Shown: in pieces, positions 6,779 through 29,832 of the stretch
How the letters are laid out: each line of letters begins with the position of its first letter
How positions within the stretch are numbered: the stretch's first letter is position 1
NCBI GenBank assembly: GCA_016839555.1
Contig: JAEOUA010000002.1
Coordinates: 1 to 64,000, forward strand
Direction: 5' to 3'
Source: Promethearchaeota archaeon
GTDB lineage: Archaea; Asgardarchaeota; Lokiarchaeia; Sigyniarchaeales; SOKP01
DNA length: 64,000 bases
The notes under the pieces: model-generated
Seen by the model: only the letters and a program-made list of their open reading frames with translations
Told to the model about the DNA's origin: nothing
Database searches by the model: none
Made by a program: the position numbers and the translations under genes

Positions 6779-6810
6779 ATTCTTTCTTTTTTCAAAAATT
6801 ATTAATAAAA

Positions 6811-7920
6811 TTATTTATAAGTTTTTATAAAGTAGATACCCCTATTATTAAGCTCTTTTTCAAATTTAATTAAATCTAATTCGCTACATCCTTCTGGTGG
6901 AAAAATTCCTGGAGCATTTATTTCTCCATTTAAAAGCATCTGAGCTGCTATTGACGCCGGAGTTCCGGATAACTTAGCAACTTGACCTATTACTGTATAT
7001 AATAAATGATATTCCTTTTGATCTTTTATTCCAATGATTTCACTCCTGAATGCAGACATTATTTCCCTATCCTCTACTTTACCAGTCAAAAGCGGGAGGA
7101 TCTTTAAAAAAAACGTACTGATTAATTTAATTAATTTTATATTTTTTATCCAAACCAGCTTATCAATTATTTTAGTGAGCATTACATCTGATTCAGGGAG
7201 TATCCCTCCCTTGCAAACAGCCTCCTTAGTATTAATATATCGCGGTAATGTAACAGGCTCAGGATGACCAACAAAAAACACGGGGACGCTTCCACAAGGA
7301 TCTGGAAAATTAATTACTTCTCTTTGAGTAAGAGCTTTTAATTTAGACCAGCTTCCATTTATGAATACAGGCACTTTTCCCATGGCAATATGAGTCCAAT
7401 GCATTAACTGACCTAAACCAATTGTCTCACCAGTATCTTCATACCATAAAATTCGTAGTTTATCTATATGATCAAATTTTTCAGAACCAATTTTAGTCAT
7501 AATATTAGTTAAACCAGGAGAAGCACCAAAATTAATCAAGAAGGTTAGATTTTCGCGTTCTATAATCTTTTTTAGATTTAATAACTCATTTGTAACATCA
7601 TGGTCATCACATATATCCACATAATTTATTCCTGCTTGGATAGCAGCTCTTGGTACATAAGATCCAAATTCAAAATAGGGCCCAATATTATTTATAACAA
7701 CCTTAAAATCCTTTAATTTTTCAACTAATTTATCAAAATCCCGAATATCTAATTTGCTAAAATCAGCCCTTGATCCTAATTTTTTTGATAATCTTTTTCC
7801 TTCTAATTCTCTAATATCTGCAATTGTAATATTTACTCCCTGTTGAACTAAATCTTTGGCAATATATCGTCCTATTTCCCCACAACCACCTAAGATGATA
7901 ATACTCAAAATTATCACCAA
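6811..7920 (-). CDS. Saccharopine dehydrogenase-family oxidoreductase
   Basis: GGCGEIG Rossmann motif, NNIGPY, YVDICDD, GASPGLTN, HPEPVTLP, PGIFPPE. Confidence 0.88.
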   Translation of the reverse strand: MVIILSIIILGGCGEIGRYIAKDLVQQGVNITIADIRELEGKRLSKKLGSRADFSKLDIRDFDKLVEKLKDFKVVINNIGPYFEFGSYVPRAAIQAGINYVDICDDHDVTNELLNLKKIIERENLTFLINFGASPGLTNIMTKIGSEKFDHIDKLRILWYEDTGETIGLGQLMHWTHIAMGKVPVFINGSWSKLKALTQREVINFPDPCGSVPVFFVGHPEPVTLPRYINTKEAVCKGGILPESDVMLTKIIDKLVWIKNIKLIKLISTFFLKILPLLTGKVEDREIMSAFRSEIIGIKDQKEYHLLYTVIGQVAKLSGTPASIAAQMLLNGEINAPGIFPPEGCSELDLIKFEKELNNRGIYFIKTYK

Positions 7921-8277
7921 AATTGTAAATAGAGTTGGAATATATTTTTTCTAAATAAATATTAAATTTTGAAAAATAAAAGGATAAAAAACAAGGTACA
8001 TAATCAGTTAAACCATCTTTTACTATTTAATTGAATATTAACTAGATCTCTTTTGAAGCATATTCTATCCTTTCCATAATTTGAATAGCATCAAAATAAG
8101 TTTGGTTGGATTTTTTATTGAAGCTACTTAATTGAAAAGAATTTTAATTATCAAATTTACTTTATAATAAAAGAAAAATAAAAACAGCCCACATAAGGTA
8201 AATTAATCATACTTTTAGATTAGAAGGATTAAAAAAAAGAAATTAATAAATTAATAAAAAAAAATAAAAAAATTAGA

Positions 8278-9618
8278 TTATTTGGTTAAAAATCGATTTA
8301 GAATATAATGTACACCGATTCCAATTCCCCAGCCTAAGATCGCAATCGGACTCCATGGGAAACCGCCAGCGATTAGATTTAATACGACCATATCAACGCA
8401 TGTGGGTATATATACATGAAGATGCATTCTAAGAGTCCATTTAAGAACTCTTTTGACCCTAATCATTAAAATCCAGTAGATTGAATAATGAGCACTAAGA
8501 CCTATTAACCATCCTAACGCAGCATAAATTAATATTACTAGATCCAATGACAATACAATCAAAGCAATAGCAATTAAAATTAGACCAACTATGTACATTA
8601 CAATATGTCCTAAAAATGTCCATTTCCAGGCTACAAACAATTTTATTTTTGATTGGAGTTCTTCTTGGGATAATTCTTCAGATTTTTCTTTAAGAACCGT
8701 CTCTGCGTCTTTTTGTAAATCTCCATACTTCATTGCTATGAAAATATGGAAGGCTAAAAATATTCCCCAGATAAGCAAAGTTACAAATGGAGAGACCGTA
8801 TCAATAGGCGGAAGGAGCAATCCCCTAATAATATTAAAGGGATTAAACCCAACGTATAATGCAGCGTGAATAATAACTCCTTTTTTTACGGGGGCAATTT
8901 CTTTCTTATAGAAATAAAGAAAATATCCAAAGATGTGAATAACTAACGCGATACCCCAGAGTATCGAATTAAAAATACCGTTCTCAAGGTCTATTGGAAA
9001 GAAAAGCGTGTAGATTAAAATTTGTGCCACGATGAAATAGGTAATGTGTGCAGCTAATATCAAAAGATTTGCTACTTTACCGGCAGCTAATTTCTTAGCT
9101 CTTTTTTCAGTGATTTCCGTTTCTTCTCTCATTATTCTAGCTCTTTCCTTCTCAACCTTTTTATCCCAGGTAAGATATCCGATTCCATGATATGCAAGAG
9201 CAATCCCCCACATAATTAGCGGCCAATAGAAATAGATGATATTAACAGTTCCCAGTGTCATTAAATTTCCAAAAACAACGATTAAATTTACCATCACATA
9301 AACCCATGCATGAAAGACGAAAAATATCTTAAAGAGGGATTGGGTTTTTAATTTCGCTAAGAATGGAGTAACTTCATAATTGATTCCAAATATAAGCGCA
9401 TGAATACCAACACCTATTCCCCACCCAAGCATGGGAAAGATGGGCCAGAAGAATAAAATTCCTGTTACGCCTATTGCTAAGATCCAGACCATCACCAATA
9501 AAGCTATTACAGCAGCGTAAGCGAATAGATGGAGCACCAAAATAATTCTATTTGCTTTTTCTTTTTTGCTTGTAACTTCTGAAATTTTTTTTGATTTTTT
9601 TATGTTTGTTTCATTCAT
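8278..9618 (-). CDS. Polytopic membrane protein made of about six tandem 2TM domains
   Basis: Repeated HxxxY...WP...WGIG(L/V)xxH units. Confidence 0.8.
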   Translation of the reverse strand: MNETNIKKSKKISEVTSKKEKANRIILVLHLFAYAAVIALLVMVWILAIGVTGILFFWPIFPMLGWGIGVGIHALIFGINYEVTPFLAKLKTQSLFKIFFVFHAWVYVMVNLIVVFGNLMTLGTVNIIYFYWPLIMWGIALAYHGIGYLTWDKKVEKERARIMREETEITEKRAKKLAAGKVANLLILAAHITYFIVAQILIYTLFFPIDLENGIFNSILWGIALVIHIFGYFLYFYKKEIAPVKKGVIIHAALYVGFNPFNIIRGLLLPPIDTVSPFVTLLIWGIFLAFHIFIAMKYGDLQKDAETVLKEKSEELSQEELQSKIKLFVAWKWTFLGHIVMYIVGLILIAIALIVLSLDLVILIYAALGWLIGLSAHYSIYWILMIRVKRVLKWTLRMHLHVYIPTCVDMVVLNLIAGGFPWSPIAILGWGIGIGVHYILNRFLTK

Positions 9619-9811
9619 TTCGACATACCTCTTATTTTTTTAAAAAATTTTAAGGATTAATAAAAGATTAGATTATATTATTTAAGTATTTTTCATAGTC
9701 CAATTTTTTCATTTTAAGATTTTTTTAATCTTATTACTCTATTCCCTTCTTTTTATATGTAATCTATCACTTTTTAATCACAATTATACACATTAATTCC
9801 ATCAGAGATAT

Positions 9812-10312
9812 ATGGGAAATATTAGACCGTGGTACTGGCCAAAAGATGGGCAACCTCACAGAACAGAACCATTTACATGGATAATAAAAGGAAAGTTGGC
9901 AGCAAGTTGGTGGCCCGATCCTTATGTATTTGATATTTACAATGAGCAAGGAATAAAAGCTATTGTGAATTGTTCTGAATTTGATAATAAACAAGATATT
10001 CCTTCTCAGTTCGATTATTATCACTTAAATATTCCTGATTTGGGGATTCCTACTAATTATCAGTTAGAACGATTTCTAAAGATATGTGAAAAGCATATTG
10101 CTAGAAAAGAGGCAATTGTTGTCCATTGTGTTGCGGGATGTGGCAGAACAGGTCAGCTAATCGTTGCATGGGGAGCATATAACGGAATAATTCCCAAAAA
10201 TATGGATCCCGTAAAATGGATTCGACAATATAGAAAATGCTCCTTAGAAACAAAAGAACAGATGGAAGTTGCCAGAAAAATTTTTGAAAAATATAGAACT
10301 TATGAACTATAG
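9812..10312 (+). CDS. Dual-specificity/PTP-family protein phosphatase
   Basis: CX5R motif VHCVAGCGRTG, IPD general-acid loop, ETKEQ motif. Confidence 0.9.
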   Translation: MGNIRPWYWPKDGQPHRTEPFTWIIKGKLAASWWPDPYVFDIYNEQGIKAIVNCSEFDNKQDIPSQFDYYHLNIPDLGIPTNYQLERFLKICEKHIARKEAIVVHCVAGCGRTGQLIVAWGAYNGIIPKNMDPVKWIRQYRKCSLETKEQMEVARKIFEKYRTYEL

Positions 10313-10402
10313 AAATTTATAGAATAAATTAGATTATATTAATTGAATAAGTAAATATATTTTTTATGGAATTACATAACTAAACATAAACTAAGGATTT
10401 GT

Positions 10403-11521
10403 ATGCAAAAATCTGATTATATTCAATTTATACTTGATAATATTAATGTGTTCAATTTAGATTTACCTAATACCATTCAGAATTCTGAAAATTTAAAAAG
10501 TAATTTGGAATCCCTAGATGAGAACGTTTTAAAAGCGATTGCGGGGTTTAATAAAAATATTTTAGACTATTTTTTAAAAATATTCTTGGAAAAAAGTCAA
10601 GAGGAAATCAGTAAATTAGTCAAAAAATTAGCAAAAATATCATATTTTATTAGGCCGACAGGCAATTTATCCTATTTATCGCCTAATCAAATAGTTTATG
10701 TTCTCGAAAAATTACCATCATTGGAAATGAATGACATAACCCCAGAAAAAATTAGTTTAATTGCTGATGAACAATTGGAGAAAGAATTCGGAGGTGCTCA
10801 AACTCAATATTCTAAAACTGAAGCTTTTGAGAACCAATTGGCTTCCGCAAGATATTACCTTTCAAGAATTGGTTATAAGAAGCAAGAAATTGATATAAAA
10901 ATTGAGGAAGTAAGTAAAGATCCCTCAAAATTGGATGAGTTATTTACTTTAGAAGTAAAAGAAATATATAATATACCAGAAGAACTTCAAGGAGACGAGC
11001 CAGAAGTAGAACAAAGAATTATAGAGCATCATATCCAATCAATCCAACAGGATATAAATAACGAAAGGGCTGAAAAAGTAGCAGAAATCCTTACTAATAT
11101 CAAGGCAGAGGTTGGAGATAAATTACCCGAAAATTATATACGAGTTTTTAAACAGATGCATCCCGATCGACTGAATAGAGCTTATAAGTTCTTAAAAGAA
11201 AGCAAAAGAAATGATAAACGAAAAGAACTTTATCTCGAATGGTTTTTCTCTAGCCATTTATTGGAAAATATTGAATTGAAAGTAGAGCATTGGCAAGTCT
11301 CTTCAAGATCTTCTCATGAGAACGTAGGAGTGTATACTGCGGGTGTTTCCTTTTCTAGATATGATAATATCATTAAGGAATTTTCGGATGATAAGTTAGC
11401 AAAAGTGCTTTCTATCGCTCGAAAGATTCTTAAAAAACCCTCGAAAAAACGAATTCAAAAATTAGGGCAGGATTTAATTGCTGAAACTGGCTTCGATGAG
11501 CATCTCTATTTCACGGATTAG
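10403..11521 (+). CDS. Hypothetical soluble helical protein
   Basis: 372-aa ORF with AGGA RBS; no recognised motif. Confidence 0.75.
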   Translation: MQKSDYIQFILDNINVFNLDLPNTIQNSENLKSNLESLDENVLKAIAGFNKNILDYFLKIFLEKSQEEISKLVKKLAKISYFIRPTGNLSYLSPNQIVYVLEKLPSLEMNDITPEKISLIADEQLEKEFGGAQTQYSKTEAFENQLASARYYLSRIGYKKQEIDIKIEEVSKDPSKLDELFTLEVKEIYNIPEELQGDEPEVEQRIIEHHIQSIQQDINNERAEKVAEILTNIKAEVGDKLPENYIRVFKQMHPDRLNRAYKFLKESKRNDKRKELYLEWFFSSHLLENIELKVEHWQVSSRSSHENVGVYTAGVSFSRYDNIIKEFSDDKLAKVLSIARKILKKPSKKRIQKLGQDLIAETGFDEHLYFTD

Positions 11522-11846
11522 ATATTTAAATTTTATTAACCCTTTTTATTTCGATAATCTTAAATTAAATAACAAGAAGAAAAAATTATTACTTAACCTT
11601 GTTTAAATTTTATTTTGCTAGTTCTGCTGATATAATTTTTTACGTAAATTATGTTCTTTCAATAAGTTTTTAATATCTTAATAAAAAGAAATCATCTAAC
11701 ATTTTGATTTCTAAAATTAGCAGAAATAATCTTATAGATTACTATTTATCGGCATCCTAATAAAACTTATCAAAAAAAAATATTTATAAATAAAAGTGAT
11801 CTATAATATAAATTAAAATATAATAAATAAAATATAATTTAGAGGA

Positions 11847-12530
11847 TTGATAATTATGCTATTTGTATCTGATTATGATTTTCCAGAACCTATTCGATCG
11901 ATTTTACTAATTTTAAAATTAATCACCGGAATAGGCTTAGTAATTATTGCAATTATTTCGTATTTATATGTTAGAGACACTCCTAGTGATGAAAAAAGTA
12001 AGAATTATCTCATGGGAATCTCCATGTTTTTCTTAATACTGGCATGTTCCAAGGCTGTTTATTTCTATCATGATTTTTTTGCCCTAGATGAATGGGATAC
12101 TGTGCTTTCGAGAATTGCTGACTCGATTTTCCTAATTGGATTCGTTATTTTTACGTATATGATAGAGAGGCATGTTTTCAAGAAGTCGAAATATGTTTTT
12201 ACGATAATAGGAGCTCTCATTCTGGTACTATATATTATTATATGGGTTCCATTAATCTCAACAATAATACTTTATATTGGATTGATAATAATGATAACAT
12301 TACCTCTAATCATACATATATTTATTGCAGTAAAGGGTTCTGGAGATGTTAAAAAAAGAGCTCTAATAATTACCCTTGGAATTGTAATTTTGATGTTTAG
12401 TTCATTCGGGCTATTTCTATTTAAATTACTTGGATTAATGTCTAATGATCTGAGTCTTTTAATTGGTCCTCCTATTGAATTAACAGGCTATATAGTTCTT
12501 GCTTATGGACTTATAACAATGGTTTATTAA
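11847..12530 (+). CDS. Seven-TM membrane protein of unknown function
   Basis: About seven hydrophobic helices; GAGGA RBS. Confidence 0.75.
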   Translation: MIIMLFVSDYDFPEPIRSILLILKLITGIGLVIIAIISYLYVRDTPSDEKSKNYLMGISMFFLILACSKAVYFYHDFFALDEWDTVLSRIADSIFLIGFVIFTYMIERHVFKKSKYVFTIIGALILVLYIIIWVPLISTIILYIGLIIMITLPLIIHIFIAVKGSGDVKKRALIITLGIVILMFSSFGLFLFKLLGLMSNDLSLLIGPPIELTGYIVLAYGLITMVY

Positions 12531-16240: not shown

Positions 16241-17638
16241 TTAAAGATTTAATTGCTCTAATAAAATTTTATTCTTCTCCACTTTTTCTGGCTTTAAATC
16301 ATACACCTTCCACATCAAAATAAAACCAATGAAATAAAAAAGTGCTGGAACAGCGAACATTCCTATATTTATTCCCCATTGGGCTAATAATGTTTGAGTA
16401 GCTGCTCTAGGGTCAAAAAAGGTGAGAAAATGAACAATACCGAAGGTCAAGGCTTGCACAACAATTGAAATCCTTCCAATAAATGTTCTAAAACCATAAT
16501 AGATACCCTCTTCCCGTTGTTTCGTTGTAATTACAATTTCATCGATTACATCAGAAAAGGTTGGATAAATTAACGTCCAGGTTGCTCCCATGCAAAACCC
16601 AATTAATGCAAATCCAATAAGGATATAGGGGAAATGCCATATTAGCATCGTTATAATTAATGATGTCCCGGTACCTAAAGTTCCGCACATATAACCAACT
16701 CGATTTCCATATTTACGACTCACTTTAATCCATAATGGTGCTGATGATACACTCGCCAATAAAAATACTAATAAAATGATTGTTTCATAAAAAGGCTCAA
16801 TATTAACGACATATTGCATCCAATATGGAATGGATGCTAACATCAACATCATTACGGTTGTTTGCGCTAAATATGCAATTAAATAAGCTATGTAATTTTT
16901 TTGCTTCAGAGCTGCTAATAATTTTTGAAAATAATTTTGTGGTATTCCAGAATCATCTTTTACTCTAAAAGTACGATCAATCATCTCTCTTGGCTCTTTC
17001 ATCCCATATACCATTAAAATTGAAATGATAATTAAGGTGATAGAAACAATCTCTCCGACAGTAAAATATGAACCTTTATTTGTCCCCGGAGTCCCTTCGG
17101 TTATCAGCAAGGTGGGCAATAGCGTTCCAAGAGCTAATCCGAATAAAGAACAAAGGATTTGAATGCCACCGACTTTGGTTCTTTCTTTTTGTGAGCGAAA
17201 TTTATCCGGAAAAAGCGATTGCCAATTGATTATGGTGAAAGAAAATAATGTATCAAGAACACATAAGGATAAAAGCAACCAAAGAAAGGTAATAAGCGGA
17301 TTTACTGTAGGAGGAATAAAAATTATAGCAAATATGATGGAACACGGGATACTTGTGAAAAGAAACCAAGTAAATCTTTTACCCCTTTTTCTCATAAAAC
17401 CTATATTTTTATTGGAAATATGTCCCACAATAGGATCATTTATCATATTCCAAAATCCATATAACACAACGCCAAGAGATATATAAAATACCGGCAAGAA
17501 GACTTCTGTTTCATAAAATTTAAATACCATAAAGCTTAATACTGTGGCGAGAAAATCATCAAAAAAGCTGCCTAATGAATATGAGAAATGAGTTTTATTC
17601 CCATATCTAAATTCTTGCGATTTATTTTTATTATTCAC
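16241..17638 (-). CDS. MFS transporter, GPH (MelB-like) family
   Basis: WNMINDPIVG, LFPDKF..KER, SDVIDE, REEGIYYG; about 12 TM. Confidence 0.9.
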   Translation of the reverse strand: MNNKNKSQEFRYGNKTHFSYSLGSFFDDFLATVLSFMVFKFYETEVFLPVFYISLGVVLYGFWNMINDPIVGHISNKNIGFMRKRGKRFTWFLFTSIPCSIIFAIIFIPPTVNPLITFLWLLLSLCVLDTLFSFTIINWQSLFPDKFRSQKERTKVGGIQILCSLFGLALGTLLPTLLITEGTPGTNKGSYFTVGEIVSITLIIISILMVYGMKEPREMIDRTFRVKDDSGIPQNYFQKLLAALKQKNYIAYLIAYLAQTTVMMLMLASIPYWMQYVVNIEPFYETIILLVFLLASVSSAPLWIKVSRKYGNRVGYMCGTLGTGTSLIITMLIWHFPYILIGFALIGFCMGATWTLIYPTFSDVIDEIVITTKQREEGIYYGFRTFIGRISIVVQALTFGIVHFLTFFDPRAATQTLLAQWGINIGMFAVPALFYFIGFILMWKVYDLKPEKVEKNKILLEQLNL

Positions 17639-17689: not shown

Positions 17690-18859
17690 TTAATGTTCAA
17701 TTACTATAGTTGAATCTGTGGAATATTTATCTAACGCTTTTTCATCAAGTTGAACACCCCATCCCGGTCCTTCAGGAACTTTTGCTTTCCCTCCGCTATA
17801 ATCTATCGGTTTTTTAATTAGGTCATTTTCCATCATTTCCATACCGAATAATTCAGTCGCATGATTAATTTGTGTGTATCTAGCGGAATGAAAATGAATA
17901 TGCATAGCCGAAGCGATTCCTAGAGGTTGATTATGTAATACGACACCTAATCCTTTAGCCTCGGCATAATCTATAGCTCTTAATGCTTTTGTCACACCTC
18001 CGGGGCGTTCTGAATTGATTCCTAATACTTCAACAGCGCCAAGTTCAACTAAAGTAATAAAATCTTTTAAAGAAAAATAGCCTTCGTGAGCCATCAAGGG
18101 TGTGTTAACCCGTTTTTGAACGTATCTCATCCCCAGATAATCATCCTTATTGACGGGTTGTTCAGCATAATCAATATCAAAAGGTTCTATAGCTCTTATT
18201 GCTTTAACAGCATTTACTGGGGTATACGCTTGATTATAATCAACTCTTAATCTAATATTATTTCCAAAGCTCTCTCGAATTTTTTTACAGATCTCCACAT
18301 CCTGCTTTATGCTATTCCCAAGTTTTAATCGAAAGGTTCGAAAACCTTTTTTCAAATAACTCCTTGCAATCCCTCGCATAAGCATAGGACTCCCTAATGG
18401 TATAAGTGCAGCTAATGGAATTTCATCTACATTTTTTCCTCCAATGAAATAACATGCCGGAAAACCGCTTATCTTGCCCATTAAATCATAACACGCCATA
18501 TCTAATAACCCTTTGGCAACCTCGCTCTGGGCAATATTAATATCCATTCTATGGTTAATTTTTTCAATATTAAATGGGTTTTCTCCTAATAGATAATTAG
18601 ATAATCCATTTTGAATGGAGTCAATTATTTGTATAGGAGAAACTCCACTTTCTGGAAGCCATACAAAAACCTCTCCTATTCCTTCATAGCCTTCATTGGT
18701 AAGCATTCGGATAATCACAAAATCTCCCCCTAACCAAGCTTCTTCTGCTTTTATTGCCATTCCTAAGCCCCCTTGACTTTCTCCCATTGCCTTTCTAACT
18801 GCCTCTTTAAATGGGACGTGGATTGGAGTCAGTTCAATTCTTTTTATTTTATTATTCAT
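17690..18859 (-). CDS. Enolase-superfamily enzyme (muconate lactonizing enzyme/dipeptide epimerase subgroup)
   Basis: DMACYDLMGK, FRLKLG, RVDYNQ, AEQP, MAHE, VPEGPGWGV. Confidence 0.88.
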   Translation of the reverse strand: MNNKIKRIELTPIHVPFKEAVRKAMGESQGGLGMAIKAEEAWLGGDFVIIRMLTNEGYEGIGEVFVWLPESGVSPIQIIDSIQNGLSNYLLGENPFNIEKINHRMDINIAQSEVAKGLLDMACYDLMGKISGFPACYFIGGKNVDEIPLAALIPLGSPMLMRGIARSYLKKGFRTFRLKLGNSIKQDVEICKKIRESFGNNIRLRVDYNQAYTPVNAVKAIRAIEPFDIDYAEQPVNKDDYLGMRYVQKRVNTPLMAHEGYFSLKDFITLVELGAVEVLGINSERPGGVTKALRAIDYAEAKGLGVVLHNQPLGIASAMHIHFHSARYTQINHATELFGMEMMENDLIKKPIDYSGGKAKVPEGPGWGVQLDEKALDKYSTDSTIVIEH

Positions 18860-18939
18860 AAAACTTAAGTCACCTATTTTTCTTAAATAAAATAATATCG
18901 ATATTATATAAAAGGATTAAGCATTCCTTTTAATTAACC

Positions 18940-19476
18940 TCAATTTGGCAAAGGAACATTTTCCCCCTCTAGCTTTTCATACGGTTTAAAATTAGGAATC
19001 CATCTCCTTACATTTTGTTTATATTCTATAAATTCACCATTGAATCTTTTTTCCATATATTTCTCCTCTCTAAGTGGAATATATATTACATTGATAAGAA
19101 AAAATATGAATGCATAAATTAGAATAATAAAAGAGTCAAAAATAAAACCTTCTGCTATAATCATTAGAATTACAGCATTAATCATTGGATTTCTAACATA
19201 TTTATATGGTCCTTTAATCACAAGATGTTTAGTTTCCAAATCCTTCAAGGGCATTAAAGTGCCTTTTCCAATTCTAATAAATAAAAGATTACAATAAATA
19301 AATAAGGTGAAACCACTAGAAAATAACACTATACCAGAAATGGCTAAAAAAAGCATGTTAGTAAATAGAGTAGAGATGGTTCTGCATTCTATGAAAAATA
19401 GTATGAATATAGGAATTAATCCCGCAAAAAAAGCAGGTAATAGTAAGGATTTAAGAAGTTTACCCAAAAAAGACAT
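18940..19476 (-). CDS. ICMT/PEMT-family membrane methyltransferase
   Basis: GKGTL.P, LVIKGPYKYVRNPM, EEKYMEKRF..EFIEYKQNVRRWIP. Confidence 0.88.
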   Translation of the reverse strand: MSFLGKLLKSLLLPAFFAGLIPIFILFFIECRTISTLFTNMLFLAISGIVLFSSGFTLFIYCNLLFIRIGKGTLMPLKDLETKHLVIKGPYKYVRNPMINAVILMIIAEGFIFDSFIILIYAFIFFLINVIYIPLREEKYMEKRFNGEFIEYKQNVRRWIPNFKPYEKLEGENVPLPN

Positions 19477-21915: not shown

Positions 21916-22911
21916 TTATTTATGTGATTCTTTTTGGTTTCTTTTAAATGTGGTAATGGGTCTCGTTTGGAGTATAAATAATTCATCATCCTTAATGGCC
22001 CATTCAATATCCTGTGGACAATTATAGAGTTGTTCAATACTCTTTCCCACTTCACATATGTTTTTAATATACTTTTTATTAAGGCAGCAGCTTTTTTGCA
22101 ATTTTCGGCTGGTATTAATTAGTTTAGTAGTCGAATGGGTATAATCAGGTACTGCTTTCTTTTCCTTTTTACCAATTATCGTCTTTATACTATTATAAGT
22201 ATGTTTATTTATAATTAAAGTATCGGGGATTACACAATTATTAGCCAAAGCCTCTCCAAGCCCCCATGTTGAATTTATTAACATTTCTTCAGTGTTATTA
22301 TTTAGCACATTTACGGTAAATAACACTCCAGAAATATCAGAGTTAATCATTTGCTGAATTATCACTGCCATACAGATTTCATTTAATTTAGTTTTTTTAT
22401 GCAATTTATTCATCTGAGAAAGATATAATAGGGCTCTAGGATTAAAAAGAGAACTCCAGCATGCCTTTACAGAGGACATAATATCACGTAAACTTTTCCT
22501 AAATAAATATGTATCTGCTTGGCCAGCAAAAGAAAAAGTATCCCCATCCTCAATATTAGCTGAAGATCTTACAGCAAATCTTAGCTCATCAGGTACTTTT
22601 TGATGAAAACTTTCATATGTAATTTTAATCTCATCTTTAATATCAATCGGGATTTGTGAATCAAGGATATGTTTTTTAATTTTTTTGGAAATAGTAAGGA
22701 TATTTTGAGGCTTTAAGCTCGTATTAAATAATGTATCTAATTCTTTAAGATATTTGGAAGATTTTATAAAGTCCTTATATGCTTCCGTTGAAATTATAAA
22801 TCCATCTGGAATATTGTATTTATTTTGGGCTAATTTAACTAAATTCGAACCTTTTCCTCCTAATAAATCAATATTAAAACTCCAATCCGAAAATAACTTT
22901 ACATATTTCAT
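21916..22911 (-). CDS. Stand-alone PEP synthase/PPDK N-terminal nucleotide-binding (ATP-grasp) domain
   Basis: GGKGSNL, AVRSSANIED..SFAGQ, MAVIIQQM..SGVLFT, WGLGE, QDIEWA, ILQTRPIT; the protein ends after this domain. Confidence 0.92.
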   Translation of the reverse strand: MKYVKLFSDWSFNIDLLGGKGSNLVKLAQNKYNIPDGFIISTEAYKDFIKSSKYLKELDTLFNTSLKPQNILTISKKIKKHILDSQIPIDIKDEIKITYESFHQKVPDELRFAVRSSANIEDGDTFSFAGQADTYLFRKSLRDIMSSVKACWSSLFNPRALLYLSQMNKLHKKTKLNEICMAVIIQQMINSDISGVLFTVNVLNNNTEEMLINSTWGLGEALANNCVIPDTLIINKHTYNSIKTIIGKKEKKAVPDYTHSTTKLINTSRKLQKSCCLNKKYIKNICEVGKSIEQLYNCPQDIEWAIKDDELFILQTRPITTFKRNQKESHK

Positions 22912-22957
22912 AATTGATGTAATTTAAGTTGTAATTAGATAACTAATCTCTATTAAA

Positions 22958-23314
22958 TCAATCAAGCTGATATAATATTCCTTGATCGTTATCTTCAGTT
23001 ATGATTTTTACTTGTTTTCCATCATAGTGAGTTAGATCTTTATTCTTAAGTTTAATTGCCATAATACAAGGAATATCAAATTCTCGTGAAACAATGGCCA
23101 GATGAGATCCCGCCCCTCCCGTTGTGCAAATTATTCCTGCTAAATCTGACATAATTGGACCTAAGGTTGTCGTGCCCGCGTCTTCAACTAAACAAATCTT
23201 TCCTTGAGCCTTATCGAAAAGAGAGATAACATCTTGAACGGATTTAATATACATTAATTCTCCAATAGTTTCTTTTTCTGAAGAACAAGATAATCCTTTT
23301 CCAATCTCTTTCAA
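22958..23314 (-). CDS. Stand-alone PEP-utilising phosphohistidine swivel (mobile) domain
   Basis: GIICTTGGAGSHLAIVSREFDIPC carries the phosphocarrier His; 118 aa. Confidence 0.88.
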   Translation of the reverse strand: MKEIGKGLSCSSEKETIGELMYIKSVQDVISLFDKAQGKICLVEDAGTTTLGPIMSDLAGIICTTGGAGSHLAIVSREFDIPCIMAIKLKNKDLTHYDGKQVKIITEDNDQGILYQLD

Positions 23315-23426
23315 ATAATCCCCTTTGCTTAATCAATTAATCCTAAAGTGCTTAATAAAGACCCTTCCATACGGTTTAAGAAAATTATCATAATAAACTT
23401 TTATTATAATAAAAATTTAATTAATC

Positions 23427-24593
23427 TTGTTTATGGATATTAAAGAAGCTAATAAATTAATATATCACGTTTCAGAAACTTTAGATGAACAAATTAATAA
23501 GAGAGGGCTTTTAGAATCCCAGCTCTTTCCAGTAACAGCATATATCTGTGTGTCTTTTTATAATGCTTATGATATGTTATACGATATTTTAAAAAAAATT
23601 TCAGAAAAGACCACACCAGAACAAATGGGAAAAGAAAGTAGGAAAATTCTTTCTGAACTTCATGCCTTAAGTATCATCTATATTCCTTTATATTATATGG
23701 AAGGAAGAATGGGTGAGATCAATAGAAATGGGGGAGTTCCCAGTGCGGAGCCTAAAAAGAAAAGAGAAGAGACATTATTTGTGCTTGATTTTTGGAAAAG
23801 ATTGGCATCTTCCTATTTTCCAGATAATAAACTATTTGTCAGTGATTTAAATTGGGAAAATCCCGCGCTCAATCAAGAAGATATCGATTGGACTTTAGAT
23901 AAAATTCAAAAAGTTAACGAGGATGAAACAAAAAGCATTAAGCAAACGATGGCGAATCTAGAAGTGATAGCGTTCCTAGACGAATGTGAAGCAAGAGCGA
24001 AATTATGCGATCATGGTCCATATCGAATAAATGAGGAAGAAATATTAGTATTTCGGGAAATAATGCATTTGTACGATGGAGGAAAACCTCATTTCCCTTG
24101 GTCTGAAACCAAAGCTAAAGCACCCCATTCAAATATTGCATTTGCTTTTACCTTAAAAGATGTGGAGGCTAAATTTGATAATTTTGCATCAATGGAAACC
24201 ACACCAAAAACATTCACTGATAGAATCACAGGAGTCGCATTACTAATGCGCGATGGGGACCAGGTAAAGCCTCTTGATTTAGATATTTTAGAAAAATATA
24301 ATAATTATGCAAAAAATGCCCAAAAAGAATTATATATCAAATTTTCTCAATGGGATAGGAAACAGAAACTAATAGCTGGAGCTTATGCCTATTGTTATGG
24401 CTATGCTCGATATACTAATTTTGTTGGAATAACTGATCAAATAGATTGGAATTTGACTGAAAGAACCATGAATAAGTATATCCCTATATTTATGGAAACT
24501 GATTTTGATCCAGGTATCTCGAGGCATTTTAGAACAAAGCGACAGAAGGAAAAAGGAGGGCCATCCTTATTTTTATTAGCAGATGATGAGTAA
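23427..24593 (+). CDS. Uncharacterised protein; candidate substrate-binding subunit of a split dikinase
   Basis: 388-aa soluble ORF divergent from the swivel-domain gene; LLESQLFPVTAY and ECEARAKLCDHGPY motifs. Function is inferred from context only. Confidence 0.7.
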   Translation: MFMDIKEANKLIYHVSETLDEQINKRGLLESQLFPVTAYICVSFYNAYDMLYDILKKISEKTTPEQMGKESRKILSELHALSIIYIPLYYMEGRMGEINRNGGVPSAEPKKKREETLFVLDFWKRLASSYFPDNKLFVSDLNWENPALNQEDIDWTLDKIQKVNEDETKSIKQTMANLEVIAFLDECEARAKLCDHGPYRINEEEILVFREIMHLYDGGKPHFPWSETKAKAPHSNIAFAFTLKDVEAKFDNFASMETTPKTFTDRITGVALLMRDGDQVKPLDLDILEKYNNYAKNAQKELYIKFSQWDRKQKLIAGAYAYCYGYARYTNFVGITDQIDWNLTERTMNKYIPIFMETDFDPGISRHFRTKRQKEKGGPSLFLLADDE

Positions 24594-25516
24594 TGCCAAA
24601 AAAAATTAATTCTAAGAGATATAACGAAGAAGATGATTTTCTTCATGAACCTGATGAGAGAGAAAAATGGAGAGAATCATACTATTTTAATTGGGTAGAT
24701 TTAGATAATGAGATCTCAGGATTTACTACTTTAGGGATCTTACCTAATATAGGGAAACGGGAGCTCGTCTTTATTCTTTTTTTCAAAAATAAGAGAATGG
24801 TCTATTATAAAGAACCGCAATTAGAAAAATATAATTATGAGGTTCATCCTAATTCAGTGTTAAGAGATAAGAATCTATGCTATAATATGATAAAACCAAT
24901 GGAAGAATGGAAAATCATTTATCCTTCCCGAAAATATAAGTTTCAAATTTCTTTTAAAAATCGATTTTCACCCTACTATTTTGGAAAAGACTCGTCTGCA
25001 TCATGGCATCGGCATTTTGAGTGTTCTGGATATGTGGACGGAATCTTAACTTTACGAAATGGTAAAAAACTTGAGATAAAGGGATTTGGACAACGAGATA
25101 AAAGCTGGGGATATCGAGATTGGCATCAATTCGATCGGTGGTATGCCGGACATTTTCAATATAAAAAATGGTCCTGTGGATTTAGAAAAGATTACCAAAA
25201 TAATAAAATGCAGTTATCTGGGTATATAGGAAATGAAGAGGGCAACAGACCATTAAAGGAAATAGAAATTAAAGTAAAAAATGATACCGATGCTTTCAAG
25301 AGTCCTCTTACTACACTTTATAAAATAAGCGATGAAAATAATAATCAATATCAAATACAAGCCACACGTATTAATAAGAATTCATTTATGCGCTTTTCTC
25401 GAGAATTTGAGAAGGGTTCTACTGAATTATTTGAACAAATGGTAGTAATGAAGGATTTAGACACTGGTGAAAGGGGCACTGGTATGTCAGAAGAATTAAG
25501 AACCTATTGGGCATAA
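24593..25516 (+). CDS. Tocopherol cyclase/AttH-like beta-sheet protein (DUF7064/DUF7065-like)
   Basis: WRESYYFNW, HFECSGYVDG.L, GFGQRDKSWGYRDW, GTGMSE; start overlaps the upstream stop (TAATG). Confidence 0.7.
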   Translation: MPKKINSKRYNEEDDFLHEPDEREKWRESYYFNWVDLDNEISGFTTLGILPNIGKRELVFILFFKNKRMVYYKEPQLEKYNYEVHPNSVLRDKNLCYNMIKPMEEWKIIYPSRKYKFQISFKNRFSPYYFGKDSSASWHRHFECSGYVDGILTLRNGKKLEIKGFGQRDKSWGYRDWHQFDRWYAGHFQYKKWSCGFRKDYQNNKMQLSGYIGNEEGNRPLKEIEIKVKNDTDAFKSPLTTLYKISDENNNQYQIQATRINKNSFMRFSREFEKGSTELFEQMVVMKDLDTGERGTGMSEELRTYWA

Positions 25517-25558: not shown

Positions 25559-26308
25559 TTAAATAGAACGAATTTTTCGAGCAACAGTATTCAATGTTAA
25601 TTCAGCCATTCCTAATGGCACACTTTTTTCAAATAAAAGAACTATTAAAAAGTCACTCTTTTTTTTAGGAATTTTTACCATCTTAGAAAAAACTTTTTGC
25701 CCATTGCTCAAACTATAATAAGACTCAGGAAATTCAATAACTCCCGTCATAAATCTGATTTCCAACTCTTTAAGAGATCGAACTAAAATATCATCAGGAA
25801 GAGAAGTATAAATGATATTTCCATCAGTAGATAATGCTGCTGCTCCGACAATCTCATTCTGAAACATATATTCCTTAAATAATTTGATTATTTTTGTATA
25901 GAACTCCTTTTTTTTAATAATTTCTTCTTGTCCAGATAAAATCGAGATGACTTGATTATCAAATTCCGGATTGTCTAATTCTTGATAATCTTTTAAATCC
26001 TTCAGATCTAAAAACATATCTTTAAAAGTATCAGAAATTTTTTCTAATCGAGTTTTTAAAAATAAAAGACTAACTTTTTGATCGGAAAGAAGGGTAAAGA
26101 TGTAATTTCCCACAATTTTAAAAGTAAACCGTAGATTACTCATCTCCAATACTTCTATCTTGCCTGAGATTACTTGTTCTGCAAAACTAAAAATGGCCGA
26201 AAAAAATGGAGTGAGAAAATTTATTTCATAATCAATTAATTGCGAGAAATTTCTATGATAAATACAGGCCCCAGATAAATTTAAAATGAAGAAACTATGT
26301 ACTTCCAT
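25559..26308 (-). CDS. Longin domain fused to a roadblock/profilin-like domain (eukaryotic signature protein)
   Basis: FFILNLSGACIYHRNF...FFSAIFSFAEQV...IEVLEMSNLRFTF (longin); IVGAAALSTDGNIIYTSLP (roadblock-like). Confidence 0.72.
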   Translation of the reverse strand: MEVHSFFILNLSGACIYHRNFSQLIDYEINFLTPFFSAIFSFAEQVISGKIEVLEMSNLRFTFKIVGNYIFTLLSDQKVSLLFLKTRLEKISDTFKDMFLDLKDLKDYQELDNPEFDNQVISILSGQEEIIKKKEFYTKIIKLFKEYMFQNEIVGAAALSTDGNIIYTSLPDDILVRSLKELEIRFMTGVIEFPESYYSLSNGQKVFSKMVKIPKKKSDFLIVLLFEKSVPLGMAELTLNTVARKIRSI

Positions 26309-26664: not shown

Positions 26665-28362
26665 ATGAAAGATTATTCGGATTGGACTCCCTTTTTAGAT
26701 TATGAAAATGAATCCCCTTTTTTGGAAAGCTATGAACGTCCTTGGTTACAATTTCGCCCCCCATATATTCCGAAATCAATTAAATACGATTTAATTCCAC
26801 TTCATGAATTTATCAAAACAACCGCAACTAAAATTCCAAATAATGTATGTGTCTATCACAAACCTATTGATAAAAAATATACTTATAGAGAATTTATGTA
26901 TATTTCTGATAAGGTCGCTAATGCTTTATCTCAAATAGGTATAGGAAAAGGTCATGCTGTAGGCATTTTAATGCCAAACTGCCCTGAATTTTTATTTTGC
27001 TGTATGGGAATTTTGGAAGCGGGAGCAGCGGTCACACCAATCAATCCTCTCTTGAAAGAGGCAGATGTGGAGCATATTATTCGAGAAGCTGGAATTATAA
27101 ATACCATTTTTGTGCATAAAAGCAACTATAGAACAATGAAAAAGGTCGAGAAAAAAGTGGAGATAAAAAATATTATCTTAATTGGATCGGATCAAGGAAA
27201 GGATCATGCGATTACTTTTGAGGAATTTATTGAAGATGTTTCGCCCTCTCCACCAGAAATCGATATTGACCCCATGGAAGATCTTGCCGCCTTACTATTT
27301 ACTGGAGGAACAACAGGGCTTCCCAAAGGTGTCATGTTAACCCACAATAATATTGTGGCGGATGCTCTTCTTACTCTTGAAACAAACAGGGATAGTGAAG
27401 AACCTCTCGAAGATAATATCGGAAATACTGTCAACTTGAGCATTTTACCGCTCTGCCACACGTTTGGATTTGAAATCATGGTTACTGCATTATTTGGAGG
27501 GGCTATGCTTGTTATGTTTGCATCTTTTAACCCTTCCGAAATTTTGGAAGCTTTGGAATATTATGAAGTGTCTATATTTGTAGGTGTTCCAGTAATGTAT
27601 CAAATGTTAATCCATTCACCTGATTTTACTGAAAGAAATCTGTCGAAGATAGAACAAGCAAGTTCTGGTTCCGCAGCATTAGCACCAGAACTCGCTAGAA
27701 AATGGGAAAAAGTTGTGGGCACTAAAGTTGGTCAAGGATTCGGCTTAACTGAATCATCACCCATTACCCATATACCTGTTCCCTGGATGCCAGAAATTAA
27801 ATCGGAAAGCATCGGTATTCCAATAATAGATACAGACGCAAAAATCGTAAAACCTGAAACTCTGGAAGACCTTCCACAGGGTGAAATAGGTGAACTTTTA
27901 ATAAAGGGCCCTCAAGTAATGAAGGGATATTGGAAAAAACCAAAACTAACAGAAAAAACCATTGTTGATGGATGGCTGAAAACCGGGGATCTCGCAAGGA
28001 TGGACGAACAAGGATATTTTTACATAGAAGGCCGCACTAAGGATATAATCAAGTATAAAGGCTATAAAGTAATGCCTAGAGAGGTTGAGGAAAAGCTCTA
28101 CGAACATCCAGCTATATTAGAAGCGGGTGTAGTGTCAGCACCCGATCCCAATATCGGCGAAACCATCAAAGCGTATATTGTATTGAAATCTGAATATAGA
28201 GATGGCAAAATCAAGGAGCGAGATATTATTGAATGGTGTAAAGAACGATTAGCGGGGTATAAATATCCAAGAAAAGTTGAGTTTCTCAATATATTACCCC
28301 GCACGATGGTAGGCAAAATTTTTAGAAGAAAATTAAGGGAAATGGCTTTCAAAAAACAATAA
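26665..28362 (+). CDS. Long-chain fatty acid-CoA ligase (AMP-binding)
   Basis: FTGGTTGLPKGVMLTH, GFGLTE, KTGDL, GRTKDII, LPRTMVGKI. Confidence 0.93.
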   Translation: MKDYSDWTPFLDYENESPFLESYERPWLQFRPPYIPKSIKYDLIPLHEFIKTTATKIPNNVCVYHKPIDKKYTYREFMYISDKVANALSQIGIGKGHAVGILMPNCPEFLFCCMGILEAGAAVTPINPLLKEADVEHIIREAGIINTIFVHKSNYRTMKKVEKKVEIKNIILIGSDQGKDHAITFEEFIEDVSPSPPEIDIDPMEDLAALLFTGGTTGLPKGVMLTHNNIVADALLTLETNRDSEEPLEDNIGNTVNLSILPLCHTFGFEIMVTALFGGAMLVMFASFNPSEILEALEYYEVSIFVGVPVMYQMLIHSPDFTERNLSKIEQASSGSAALAPELARKWEKVVGTKVGQGFGLTESSPITHIPVPWMPEIKSESIGIPIIDTDAKIVKPETLEDLPQGEIGELLIKGPQVMKGYWKKPKLTEKTIVDGWLKTGDLARMDEQGYFYIEGRTKDIIKYKGYKVMPREVEEKLYEHPAILEAGVVSAPDPNIGETIKAYIVLKSEYRDGKIKERDIIEWCKERLAGYKYPRKVEFLNILPRTMVGKIFRRKLREMAFKKQ

Positions 28363-28410: not shown

Positions 28411-29832
28411 TTAATTTAATTCTGGTATTATATCGGTTTTTATTTCTATAGTTCTGAGTGACACCACACTTATAAGATAAAAAAGCCCCATTGATACTAA
28501 AGAAAGTATTATAATCATTGGATTCTCTTGATTAGGACCGATAAGTAAAATTCCCATTAAAATAGACCCTAAAGCTTTGCCTAAAGAGACTATAAAGTTT
28601 AAAGAACCATAATATGCACCTGATATTTTTGAGACCTCTTCTTCTGGATTAATCTTATCTATCAGAAATGCGGCATTATAGACTAAAATGGCTCCCATGG
28701 GTACTGAAAATAAAGGAAAGGCATATAATGAACCGAGAACAGTTCCAATTGCTATAATAAAAAGGAGAATCTTTAAGAAGTACGATTCAAAATTGAATAA
28801 GAATATTAAAATTAAAAATGAAGAAATAATCCCAGAAGCAATACATAAAGAAAATTTCTGTTTTAAATCTTTGTTTTGAAAAAAATACTTCCATAAAAAA
28901 TACCATGTGAATTTAGTAATAGTAGAAAGCAGAACATAAATAAAAAATTCTCTTTCTCTGAATTCTAGAACGAATGTAAGGAAAGGGATAATTGCTATAC
29001 CTAATATATTTGAGGAGGTACTATTGAAGAAACTTACTGAAAGATATTTACGATATTTTTTATCTCTTAAAGGAGCTAAAATTTGCTTAAAGGCCCTTTT
29101 AATAGATAAATTATTCCTCCTTTGGAAGCTATATTGATTATAAAATGACTCATCAACAGAAAAATAAACTGAAAAAACTGTTAAAGCACCTAAAATTATG
29201 GAGGAAATACCAATTATTGGCATCCAAAATAGAAATATTTTTCCAGAAGGTTGCCACCATTTTACATTTTCTGGATCAACTAAATTTTGTATGATAAGAG
29301 GCAAAAGTAATGCAATTACAGAGGCAATAATTAAAAAAATTCCTTGCATTGTAGCAATAGACTCTTGAGTCTTTTTAGATCGAAATTGTTCTGGAAACAT
29401 CGCAAGATACGCGGTGTAGATTAATGTATCTGAAAGAGCATTGAGAATCATAATCGTCCAGAAATAAATAGCAGTAGGTAAGAAAAAAGAATTATCTTGT
29501 GGACAATAAAAGGGCGGCATCCAAATTAATATATTTGATATAATCCAAATTGGTAATCCAATCAATAAAAATGGTCTTCTCCTTCCCCATTTCCCGGGTC
29601 TTTTCCTGTCATTTATTACCCCCCATAAAATTGAAAACAGAGCACTAATAATTAGATTTAAACTTATTCCAATGGAGACAAAAATTGAATTCAAATTGAT
29701 AGTATACACGTAAAATTGAAAAATAAAAGTGGCAATCAAGATTCTTATCAATGATACGCCAAAGTTACCAAGAGCATATCCAATTTTGTTTTTTTCCCGC
29801 TTTACTTGATTGCTCACTTCTTCTGTAGTCAT
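28411..29832 (-). CDS. MFS transporter, GPH family
   Basis: KWGRRRPF, AMFPEQF, SGAYYG; about 12 TM. Confidence 0.88.
   Translation of the reverse strand: MTTEEVSNQVKREKNKIGYALGNFGVSLIRILIATFIFQFYVYTINLNSIFVSIGISLNLIISALFSILWGVINDRKRPGKWGRRRPFLLIGLPIWIISNILIWMPPFYCPQDNSFFLPTAIYFWTIMILNALSDTLIYTAYLAMFPEQFRSKKTQESIATMQGIFLIIASVIALLLPLIIQNLVDPENVKWWQPSGKIFLFWMPIIGISSIILGALTVFSVYFSVDESFYNQYSFQRRNNLSIKRAFKQILAPLRDKKYRKYLSVSFFNSTSSNILGIAIIPFLTFVLEFREREFFIYVLLSTITKFTWYFLWKYFFQNKDLKQKFSLCIASGIISSFLILIFLFNFESYFLKILLFIIAIGTVLGSLYAFPLFSVPMGAILVYNAAFLIDKINPEEEVSKISGAYYGSLNFIVSLGKALGSILMGILLIGPNQENPMIIILSLVSMGLFYLISVVSLRTIEIKTDIIPELN

Follow-up and report, generated by a model that had tools for sequence, protein, structure and literature searches.

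The locus occupies positions 21916–25516 of the window, meaning the whole 64,000-nucleotide stretch of DNA that was analysed, and is a four-gene Lokiarchaeal cluster whose open reading frames were found at the coordinates given by a first-pass annotation. Its features are listed here, with X standing for the 388-aa protein.

21916..22911, minus strand: stand-alone ATP-grasp (PPDK_N) nucleotide-binding subunit, 331 aa, Pfam PPDK_N
22958..23314, minus strand: stand-alone phospho-histidine swivel (PEP-utilizers mobile domain), 118 aa, TTG start
23102–23104, minus strand: His71 codon of the swivel gene
23315..23426, no strand: AT-rich divergent intergenic spacer between the swivel and X genes, 112 nt, read from the sequence
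23427..24593, plus strand: X, a family absent from Pfam and NCBIfam, 388 aa, probably 386 aa from the ATG at 23433
24593..25516, plus strand: DUF7065 double beta-barrel protein, 307 aa, nearest relative 25-phosphosteroid lyase

The ATP-grasp and swivel domains had been placed on separate genes by the first-pass annotation, and single-domain Pfam matches agreed with this. The 331-aa protein matched PPDK_N (E = 5.5e-83, profile positions 2–318 of 328) as its sole domain, covering the whole protein, and aligned only to the N-terminal ~340 residues of the NCBIfam PpsA, PigC and RPH models; its orthologues in relatives are likewise separate genes, encoding 322–352 aa. The 118-aa protein matched PEP-utilizers (PF00391, E = 3.1e-11), again as the sole domain, and aligned only to the last ~90 residues of the NCBIfam PRK08296 models. 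It contains GGAGSH, which fits the G-G-x-x-S/C-H motif around the catalytic His of PEP synthase and PPDK, and the GGAGSHLAIVSRE motif (GSHLAIVSRE) and His71 were invariant in 12 orthologues. These orthologues also have an N-terminal G-x-G-L-S-C-S stretch in common, which supports the TTG start. Neither dikinase gene had been thought to carry a TIM barrel, and the Pfam model for it, PEP-utilizers_C (PF02896), indeed had no match in any of six proteins, four from the cluster and two that flank it. The divergent spacer had the length previously described, and the start of the DUF7065 gene overlaps the X stop codon by one base at 24593 (TAATG), in line with the translational coupling described earlier for the X and DUF7065 genes. 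An Rfam scan of the window gave no match.

X had been regarded as a protein of no recognised family, and this was upheld: X alone had no match in Pfam or NCBIfam, and 43 family members had no consistent one. Its profile found matches at chance level at best among PDB sequences (E = 0.13 or worse), and its fold had no convincing match among solved chains. An hhalign comparison revealed no relation to the middle domain of the RPH-type 898-aa dikinase encoded elsewhere in the genome (probability 0.2%). Because orthologues begin at the residue matching the ATG at 23433, this is probably the true start. Within the family, R94, R190 and Y199 are invariant across archaea and bacteria, and the ECEAR..DHGPY segment holds R190 and Y199 together with the nearly invariant G197 and P198.

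We then examined the gene neighbourhood of X in 30 Asgard loci, with just 1.5 kb of flank each. The swivel gene adjoins X in 22 of these and the ATP-grasp gene in 16; in eight loci X and the DUF7065 gene occur without an adjoining swivel gene, and in at least three cases (G013, G021 and G023) a swivel gene is found at a greater distance in the locus or in a paralogous locus. The swivel and X genes also multiply as a unit, with a tandem duplication in one locus (L043) and three copies, one of them fused, in Gordonia. A word-based search found no longer, fused forms of X, but an exhaustive profile search did find N-terminal swivel–X fusions in Gordonia otitidis and in metagenomes (P0175, P0177 and P0241 are such proteins), indicating that the word-based negative was a limit of sensitivity. 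The linkage of X homologues to dikinase domains, which the first-pass annotation had predicted, is thus borne out by adjacency and by fusions. In Burkholderia ambifaria, genes for DUF7065, the swivel, X and a PPDK_N–swivel protein lie side by side. Gaiella-like actinobacteria have the genes arranged as swivel, PEP-utilizers_C, X, with a TIM barrel in the place of the ATP-grasp protein, and neither of the two such loci has an ATP-grasp protein among its called genes. Judged from the gene content of this variant, the phosphoryl donor is apparently exchangeable while the swivel and X stay.

Docking of the swivel His against X had also been suggested. The predicted X–swivel complex reached an ipSAE of 0.80, compared with 0.00 for the best control. 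Of 80 solved complexes, 58 reached the mark used, as did 2 of 110 mismatched pairs; these counts hold only roughly here since the complex model was built from our own alignments. Three runs shared at least 92% of contacts, with partner pLDDT of at least 90. The predicted interface comprises swivel residues 65–71, including His71, and X residues 187–188 and 190, and sets His71 at a loop beside the invariant Arg190 of X. Collectively, swivel adjacency, fusions, the TIM-barrel variant and the complex model support the earlier idea that X is the missing substrate module, and we propose that it is the phosphoryl-acceptor and substrate subunit.

The 307-aa protein matched Pfam DUF7065 (PF23213) with E = 6.9e-16 and 59.3 bits (cut-off 27). 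The earlier description of it as cyclase/lipocalin-like held at the level of the superfamily by Foldseek, while its nearest relative proved to be 25-phosphosteroid lyase (PDB 9FZN/9G2I/9G4C, E = 1.4e-5), the sole significant sequence-profile match among solved structures. The two proteins have an invariant RDxSWGxR, yyFN and a His in common. The AF2 model (pLDDT 89.8) had 9g4c_B as its top Foldseek match (E = 1.3e-13, TMq 0.72, 350 alignment columns), over the full-length two-barrel fold, followed by Fsa2, Phm7, CghA, kievitone hydratase and AttH. Structural alignment gave 14% identity to the lyase, and at the sequence level the match is confined to the N-terminal barrel. Pfam models for CrtC and AttH did not match the protein at E ≤ 0.1. 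In 29 of the 30 Asgard loci a DUF7065 gene is found no more than 1.5 kb from X; Burkholderia ambifaria has one in its cluster too, and in Gordonia a weak DUF7065 match follows swivel–X. Literature searches on DUF7065 and Rv3169 gave incidental mentions only. Hydratases (kievitone hydratase) and Diels-Alderases (Fsa2, Phm7, CghA) belong to the superfamily as well, so that lyase chemistry does not follow from membership. Because its nearest relative by profile and predicted fold is 25-phosphosteroid lyase, a role as a phosphate lyase following phosphorylation is more likely for the DUF7065 protein than one as a carrier or cyclase. This sharpens the earlier suggestion that the beta protein handles a hydrophobic alcohol; the substrate itself we still infer.

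The genome contains a further pairing of this kind. A gene for a DUF7065+DUF7064 protein starts 110 nt after that of a fused 898-aa dikinase of the RPH/PigC type and is read in the same direction, and the pair was kept in all ten relatives having the barrel gene. It is an independent repeat of the pairing seen in the cluster. In other archaea the order is an SHC-like cyclase fold, swivel, X and a divergent cis-prenyltransferase, which gives an isoprenoid context, and bacterial X homologues were placed in polyketide or fatty-acid clusters. A look for a conserved pathway among the wider neighbours gave nothing decisive. A gene of the geranylgeranyl-reductase family adjoins the window cluster and just one relative's locus among those examined, giving a weak isoprenoid hint inside the window. 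MFS_2 transporters recur beside the cluster and flank the ATP-grasp gene in three loci; a nearby acyl-CoA synthetase gene is not conserved, and Fe–S, flavodoxin and HGD-D genes differ by locus.

Based on these findings, we consider it reasonably probable that the products of the cluster are a multi-subunit small-molecule,water dikinase and a phosphate lyase, which jointly form an ATP-driven dehydratase. The ATP-grasp protein would phosphorylate His71 of the swivel from ATP and, like PEP synthase, would set free AMP and Pi, as its family membership suggests. The phospho-swivel would then dock on X with its His71 loop turned towards the conserved ECEAR/DHGPY patch (R190, Y199), a step supported by gene neighbourhood, natural fusions and the predicted complex. 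X would bind the acceptor and catalyse phosphoryl transfer onto its hydroxyl, and the DUF7065 protein, by homology, would eliminate phosphate to leave an alkene or a carbocation-derived product. Our best guess for the substrate is a hydrophobic tertiary or allylic alcohol, probably an isoprenoid. Points that weigh against the dehydratase reading are the low identity of the barrel protein to the lyase, the Asgard loci lacking an adjoining swivel gene, the recurrent MFS_2 transporters and the polyketide or fatty-acid surroundings of the bacterial homologues. Spending two anhydride bonds would be chemically sensible because tertiary alkyl phosphoesters roughly equal ATP in energy content: with a Keq of 0.34, the reaction of 25-hydroxysteroid kinase is fully reversible, since the transfer potential of the tertiary phosphoester resembles that of ATP (PMC8449060).

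The closest parallel in logic is found in Sterolibacterium denitrificans, in which 25-hydroxysteroid kinase and 25-phosphosteroid lyase together act as an ATP-dependent dehydratase, the lyase eliminating phosphate from a tertiary steroid phosphoester (PMC7411048, PMC8449060). Both systems would phosphorylate an alcohol that is hard to dehydrate and then eliminate the phosphate. However, the kinase there is a single, reversible 40-kDa phosphotransferase that converts ATP to ADP (PMC8449060), whereas the window has three dikinase-type proteins in its place, for which AMP and Pi are expected. The cluster has no kinase domain of that 40-kDa type, its phosphorylating parts being PPDK_N and PEP-utilizers by Pfam. 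The lyases are only distantly alike, the window's host is an anaerobic archaeon, and a steroid substrate is not implied.

Among dikinases, the phenylphosphate synthase of Thauera aromatica (PpsABC) is reportedly a multi-subunit enzyme with a separate PPDK_N-only subunit, a feature shared by the 331-aa protein of the window. That enzyme makes an energy-rich phosphoester with AMP and Pi as products; its swivel His is carried by a PRK08296-type substrate subunit of ~600 aa, fused at the C-terminal end, and its third subunit is a CBS protein. In the window, by contrast, the swivel is a free protein, and X matches no NCBIfam model, PRK08296 included. The RPH, PigC and YvkC dikinases (PRK06241 group) are single chains with an ATP-grasp domain, a middle substrate domain and a C-terminal swivel. 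The window proteins would share with them ATP-grasp and swivel chemistry on hydrophobic small molecules, and the 898-aa enzyme of this group precedes a DUF7065 gene, but the window proteins are on separate chains and X shows no relation to the middle domain. A swivelling phospho-His moving between a nucleotide or PEP site and an acceptor site is a likeness to PEP synthase, PPDK and PTS enzyme I; the cluster differs from PEP synthase and PPDK in having no PEP/pyruvate TIM barrel and in distributing its domains over separate polypeptides. As a free phosphocarrier the swivel recalls HPr, from which it differs in being a swivel domain and not an HPr fold. Literature searches gave no relevant account of swivel proteins that stand alone or of biosynthetic clusters with split dikinases.

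Since both domains are fused in PEP synthase and its relatives, and PpsA models gave the best NCBIfam matches of the dikinase genes, these genes could be read as pieces of a broken ppsA-like gene with unrelated neighbours, as the first-pass annotation had itself considered for close relatives. We regard this as extremely improbable. The swivel gene lies upstream of the ATP-grasp gene, reversing the domain order of ppsA, and no TIM-barrel remnant is present in the cluster proteins. All examined relatives carrying both domains have them as two separate intact genes in the same swivel-then-ATP-grasp order (40–61% identity for the ATP-grasp protein and 58–78% for the swivel), the separate genes recur in genomes across the Asgard archaea, and another archaeal locus also has a stand-alone ATP-grasp protein. 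Furthermore, the genome keeps three intact dikinases elsewhere (PpsA, PPDK and RPH-type), and the two window genes are just 30–37% identical to them, the ATP-grasp protein being closest to the fused 898-aa dikinase (37%) and 30% identical to PpsA.

Two other readings accept the dikinase and differ on its partners. X might receive phosphate from the swivel as a protein acceptor or as a regulator, with Tyr199 as one candidate site, or might serve as a scaffold comparable to the third phenylphosphate synthase subunit; the small-molecule chemistry would then take place elsewhere. X has no recognisable fold or known catalytic activity, its invariant Tyr and two invariant Arg would also suit a phospho-acceptor site, and the complex model predicts binding and not catalysis; yet X is always beside small-molecule enzymes (the lyase-like barrel, SHC-like and prenyltransferase-like proteins, polyketide or fatty-acid genes), swivel–X units are multiplied around a single ATP-grasp gene, as expected for alternative substrate modules, and the Gaiella variant leaves X as the sole recipient of phosphate from a PEP-charged swivel. 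We found this reading distinctly unlikely. Somewhat less so, though still unlikely in our view, is that the DUF7065 protein is not a lyase but a prior hydratase making the tertiary alcohol (compare CrtC and kievitone hydratase), or a cyclase or pericyclase acting on the product, with a phosphoester such as a prenyl phosphate as the end product. Kievitone hydratase, AttH, Fsa2, Phm7 and CghA follow closely behind the lyase at TMq 0.61–0.67, and the X genes of other archaea, found beside SHC-like and prenyltransferase-like proteins and not DUF7065, would suit the making of prenyl phosphates. Against this stand the lyase being both the only significant profile match among solved structures and the top fold match, the unmatched CrtC and AttH models, and the independent recurrence of the DUF7065–dikinase pairing in fused form.

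If the reading as a split dikinase with a phosphate lyase is correct, the cluster would represent a third architecture of the dikinase superfamily, with ATP-grasp, swivel and acceptor on separate chains and the swivel as a diffusible phosphocarrier, and X would be a new acceptor-domain family without a Pfam or NCBIfam entry or a convincing fold match. More tentatively, we can envisage a modular phospho-relay in which the swivel carries phosphate from interchangeable donors (ATP-grasp, or the TIM barrel of some actinobacteria) to X, which would make energy-rich tertiary or allylic phosphoesters of isoprenoid or lipid alcohols as leaving groups for lyase-like barrels (Asgard archaea, Burkholderia) or terpene-cyclase-fold proteins (Thaumarchaeota, Bathyarchaeia). 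Such a relay, if true, would be an ATP-driven dehydration and carbocation-generating route independent of diphosphates. Dehydration of unactivated alcohols by phosphorylation and elimination was discovered recently and, to our knowledge, so far in one steroid-degrading bacterium; the split-dikinase reading would add Asgard and TACK archaea, actinobacteria and a biosynthetic cluster of Burkholderia. It would also give a chemical reason for using a dikinase, in that a one-bond kinase is reversible since tertiary phosphoesters are as energy-rich as ATP, and would point to lipid or isoprenoid chemistry that can be tested in Lokiarchaeia, which among archaea are the nearest relatives of eukaryotes.

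The window has a G+C content of about 30% and corresponds to contig C8 of a genome of 3.74 Mb (92% complete); its proteins showed 79–92% identity to proteins of MAGs labelled Lokiarchaeota or Promethearchaeota. The four open reading frames of the cluster were located exactly where the first-pass annotation had placed them, and its observation of split-dikinase genes was confirmed. The features are as follows:

21916–22911, minus strand: ATP-grasp protein of 331 aa, PPDK_N domain only (Pfam E 5.5e-83)
22958–23314, minus strand: swivel protein of 118 aa with a TTG start, PEP-utilizers swivel domain, His71 within GGAGSHLAIVSRE
Divergent spacer of 112 nt between the swivel and X genes
23427–24593, plus strand: X, 388 aa, no Pfam or NCBIfam match
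Sharing one base with the X stop codon: DUF7065 gene, 307 aa, DUF7065 match

In the 331-aa protein the PPDK_N match stopped at the usual domain boundary, and the NCBIfam PpsA, PigC and RPH models matched it by their first ~340 residues only. The full length of the 118-aa swivel, including an N-terminal GxGLSCS stretch, was common to 12 orthologues, among which His71 was invariant. A PEP/pyruvate TIM barrel was absent from every protein of the cluster. The true start of X is probably the ATG at 23433, because its orthologues begin at the matching residue. Convergent with the DUF7065 gene lies a gene for a 249-aa protein (25559–26308, minus strand) without Pfam or NCBIfam match, of which no homologue was found in the relatives' loci examined.

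The two dikinase genes could also be read as fragments of one broken ppsA. This was rejected: the order, swivel gene first and ATP-grasp gene second, is opposite to that of the domains in ppsA, the two genes are likewise separate in all relatives carrying both, and the genome contains three intact dikinases (a PpsA-like enzyme, a PPDK and an 898-aa enzyme of the RPH/PigC type). The stand-alone ATP-grasp protein shared 37% identity with the RPH/PigC-type enzyme and 30% with the PpsA-like one.

It had been proposed from the sequence that X is the missing substrate module and that the swivel acts as a free phosphocarrier. Comparative evidence supported this reading, and on that evidence a split-dikinase architecture with X as the swivel partner is well supported. 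The complete four-gene set occurred in 13 of 24 genomes of the same family, and X in 80 of 301 sampled genomes of the phylum. When 30 X loci were inspected with a flank of only 1.5 kb, we found the DUF7065 gene in 29, the swivel in 22 and the ATP-grasp gene in 16. Genes for a swivel, an ATP-grasp protein and a DUF7065 paralogue also adjoin X paralogues of 430–459 aa at paralogous loci, one of which has two tandem swivel+X units. In an exhaustive profile search the X family comprised 305 representative clusters. Its members, from Asgard archaea, Thaumarchaeota, Bathyarchaeia, Gaiella, Gordonia and Burkholderia, are without exception annotated as hypothetical or named for the swivel part only. 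In three representatives an N-terminal swivel is naturally fused to X.

The bacterial loci vary in their donor module. In Gaiella-like actinobacteria (two loci, one of them L081 5765–8143) the operon order is swivel, PEP-utilizers_C TIM barrel and X. The genes called at the two loci include no ATP-grasp, which suggests that the same phospho-relay is driven by PEP there; the donor module has been swapped and swivel+X retained, as would be expected were X the relay's acceptor end. Gordonia otitidis carries three swivel+X units, including one fusion, beside a single PPDK_N-swivel protein. On this metagenome contig (L044 3106–10939) the units are in tandem, the fused one being 575 aa, and are followed by a weakly DUF7065-like 382-aa protein; the PPDK_N-swivel protein, an AMP-ligase, a 2OG-Fe dioxygenase and a Rph_4th-swivel protein lie nearby, and the region looks like a biosynthetic or catabolic cluster. 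The order in Burkholderia ambifaria AMMD is DUF7065, swivel, X and PPDK_N-swivel, within a KSIII/ACP/PKS cluster. At the B. ambifaria locus L046 (CP113276.2, chromosome 3; 5936–11963) the swivel, X and PPDK_N-swivel proteins measure 246, 726 and 590 aa, surrounded by KSIII, ACP, SDR and a large PKS with thioesterase.

The AF2 model of X was confident (pLDDT 86, pTM 0.88) and comprised a helical N-terminal half, a multi-stranded sheet and C-terminal helices. X belongs to an undescribed family and has no recognisable fold relative among solved structures, since neither searching PDB sequences with its profile nor aligning it by hhalign to the middle domain of the RPH-type dikinase of the genome gave a positive result. 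Modelling of the X–swivel complex gave an ipSAE of 0.80 versus 0.00 for the best control, a mark attained by 58 of 80 solved complexes and 2 of 110 mismatched pairs, although these calibration counts are only roughly valid here as the alignments were our own. At least 92% of contacts agreed across three runs, with partner pLDDT of at least 90. The modelled interface included swivel loop 65–71, which contains His71, and residues 187–188 and 190 of X. R94, R190 (within the ECEAR motif) and Y199 of X were invariant in 43 diverse family members. The predicted complex supports, short of demonstrating, binding of X to the swivel.

The main new result is the link between DUF7065 and 25-phosphosteroid lyase (9FZN, 9G2I, 9G4C), the only solved protein matched by the DUF7065 orthologue profile (E 1.4e-5); entry 9G4C contains the lyase together with phosphate and desmostadienone. 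In Sterolibacterium denitrificans, a tertiary C25 phosphoester formed by 25-hydroxysteroid kinase loses phosphate via this lyase, so that kinase and lyase together constitute an ATP-dependent dehydratase (PMC7411048, PMC11061730). The phosphoryl-transfer potential of the tertiary phosphoester is like that of ATP, which makes the kinase fully reversible (Keq 0.34; PMC8449060). In the aligned region, the invariant His and the yyFN and RDxSWGxR motifs of the DUF7065 family are common to both proteins. The lyase was also the best Foldseek match of the DUF7065 AF2 model (pLDDT 89.8; E 1.3e-13, TMq 0.72), followed by Fsa2, Phm7, CghA, kievitone hydratase and AttH of the AttH-like superfamily. Energy-rich phosphoesters such as PEP and phenylphosphate are made in cells by dikinases, and coupling a dikinase to a lyase of this type is therefore chemically coherent.

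This partnership recurs independently in fused form. On contig C12 of the same genome (L086:3179–6948, minus strand), 110 nt separate the gene for the 898-aa single-chain RPH/PigC/YvkC-type dikinase from that for a 320-aa DUF7065+DUF7064 barrel protein, which lies downstream on the same strand. The dikinase lies directly upstream of this barrel gene in 10/10 relatives carrying it. The dikinase–DUF7065 partnership thus occurs both split and fused.

Hints on the substrate diverge. The chemistry of the lyase relatives favours an isoprenoid alcohol. In Thaumarchaeota, Bathyarchaeia and an archaeal metagenome (L048, L049 and L082), swivel+X are flanked by an SHC-like terpene-cyclase-fold protein on one side and a divergent cis-prenyltransferase on the other, L082 additionally having a stand-alone 325-aa ATP-grasp; this conserved operon may represent a distinct isoprenoid pathway with the same phospho-relay. 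A geranylgeranyl-reductase-family gene adjoins the cluster both here and in one relative. MFS_2 transporters beside the cluster in several loci and the polyketide or fatty-acid contexts of the bacterial homologues speak against a role confined to endogenous lipids. Two MFS_2 (GPH-family) transporters are encoded near the cluster in the window (16241–17638 and 28411–29832, both minus strand), and homologues directly adjoin the ATP-grasp gene in three related loci (L036, L042, L043), which hints that the substrate is imported.

Other neighbours were also noted. The flanks of the cluster (17690–19476, minus strand; 26665–28362, plus strand) encode an MR_MLE enolase-superfamily protein, a PEMT-like methyltransferase and an acyl-CoA-synthetase-like AMP-binding enzyme, none of which is kept beside the cluster in the relatives examined. 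In a related genome (L042 9968–12407, minus strand), two genes for HGD-D, a 2-hydroxyglutaryl-CoA dehydratase D-component-like protein and another enzyme type for difficult dehydrations or reductions, adjoin a paralogous swivel/X/DUF7065 cluster.

Searches of the accessible literature yielded no account of such a system. Collectively, these data support a dikinase made of three proteins, with the swivel as free phosphocarrier and X representing a new acceptor family, that is coupled to a barrel resembling a phosphate lyase. The dikinase would transfer a phosphoryl group to a small molecule, probably an isoprenoid, on which the barrel would then act as a lyase.
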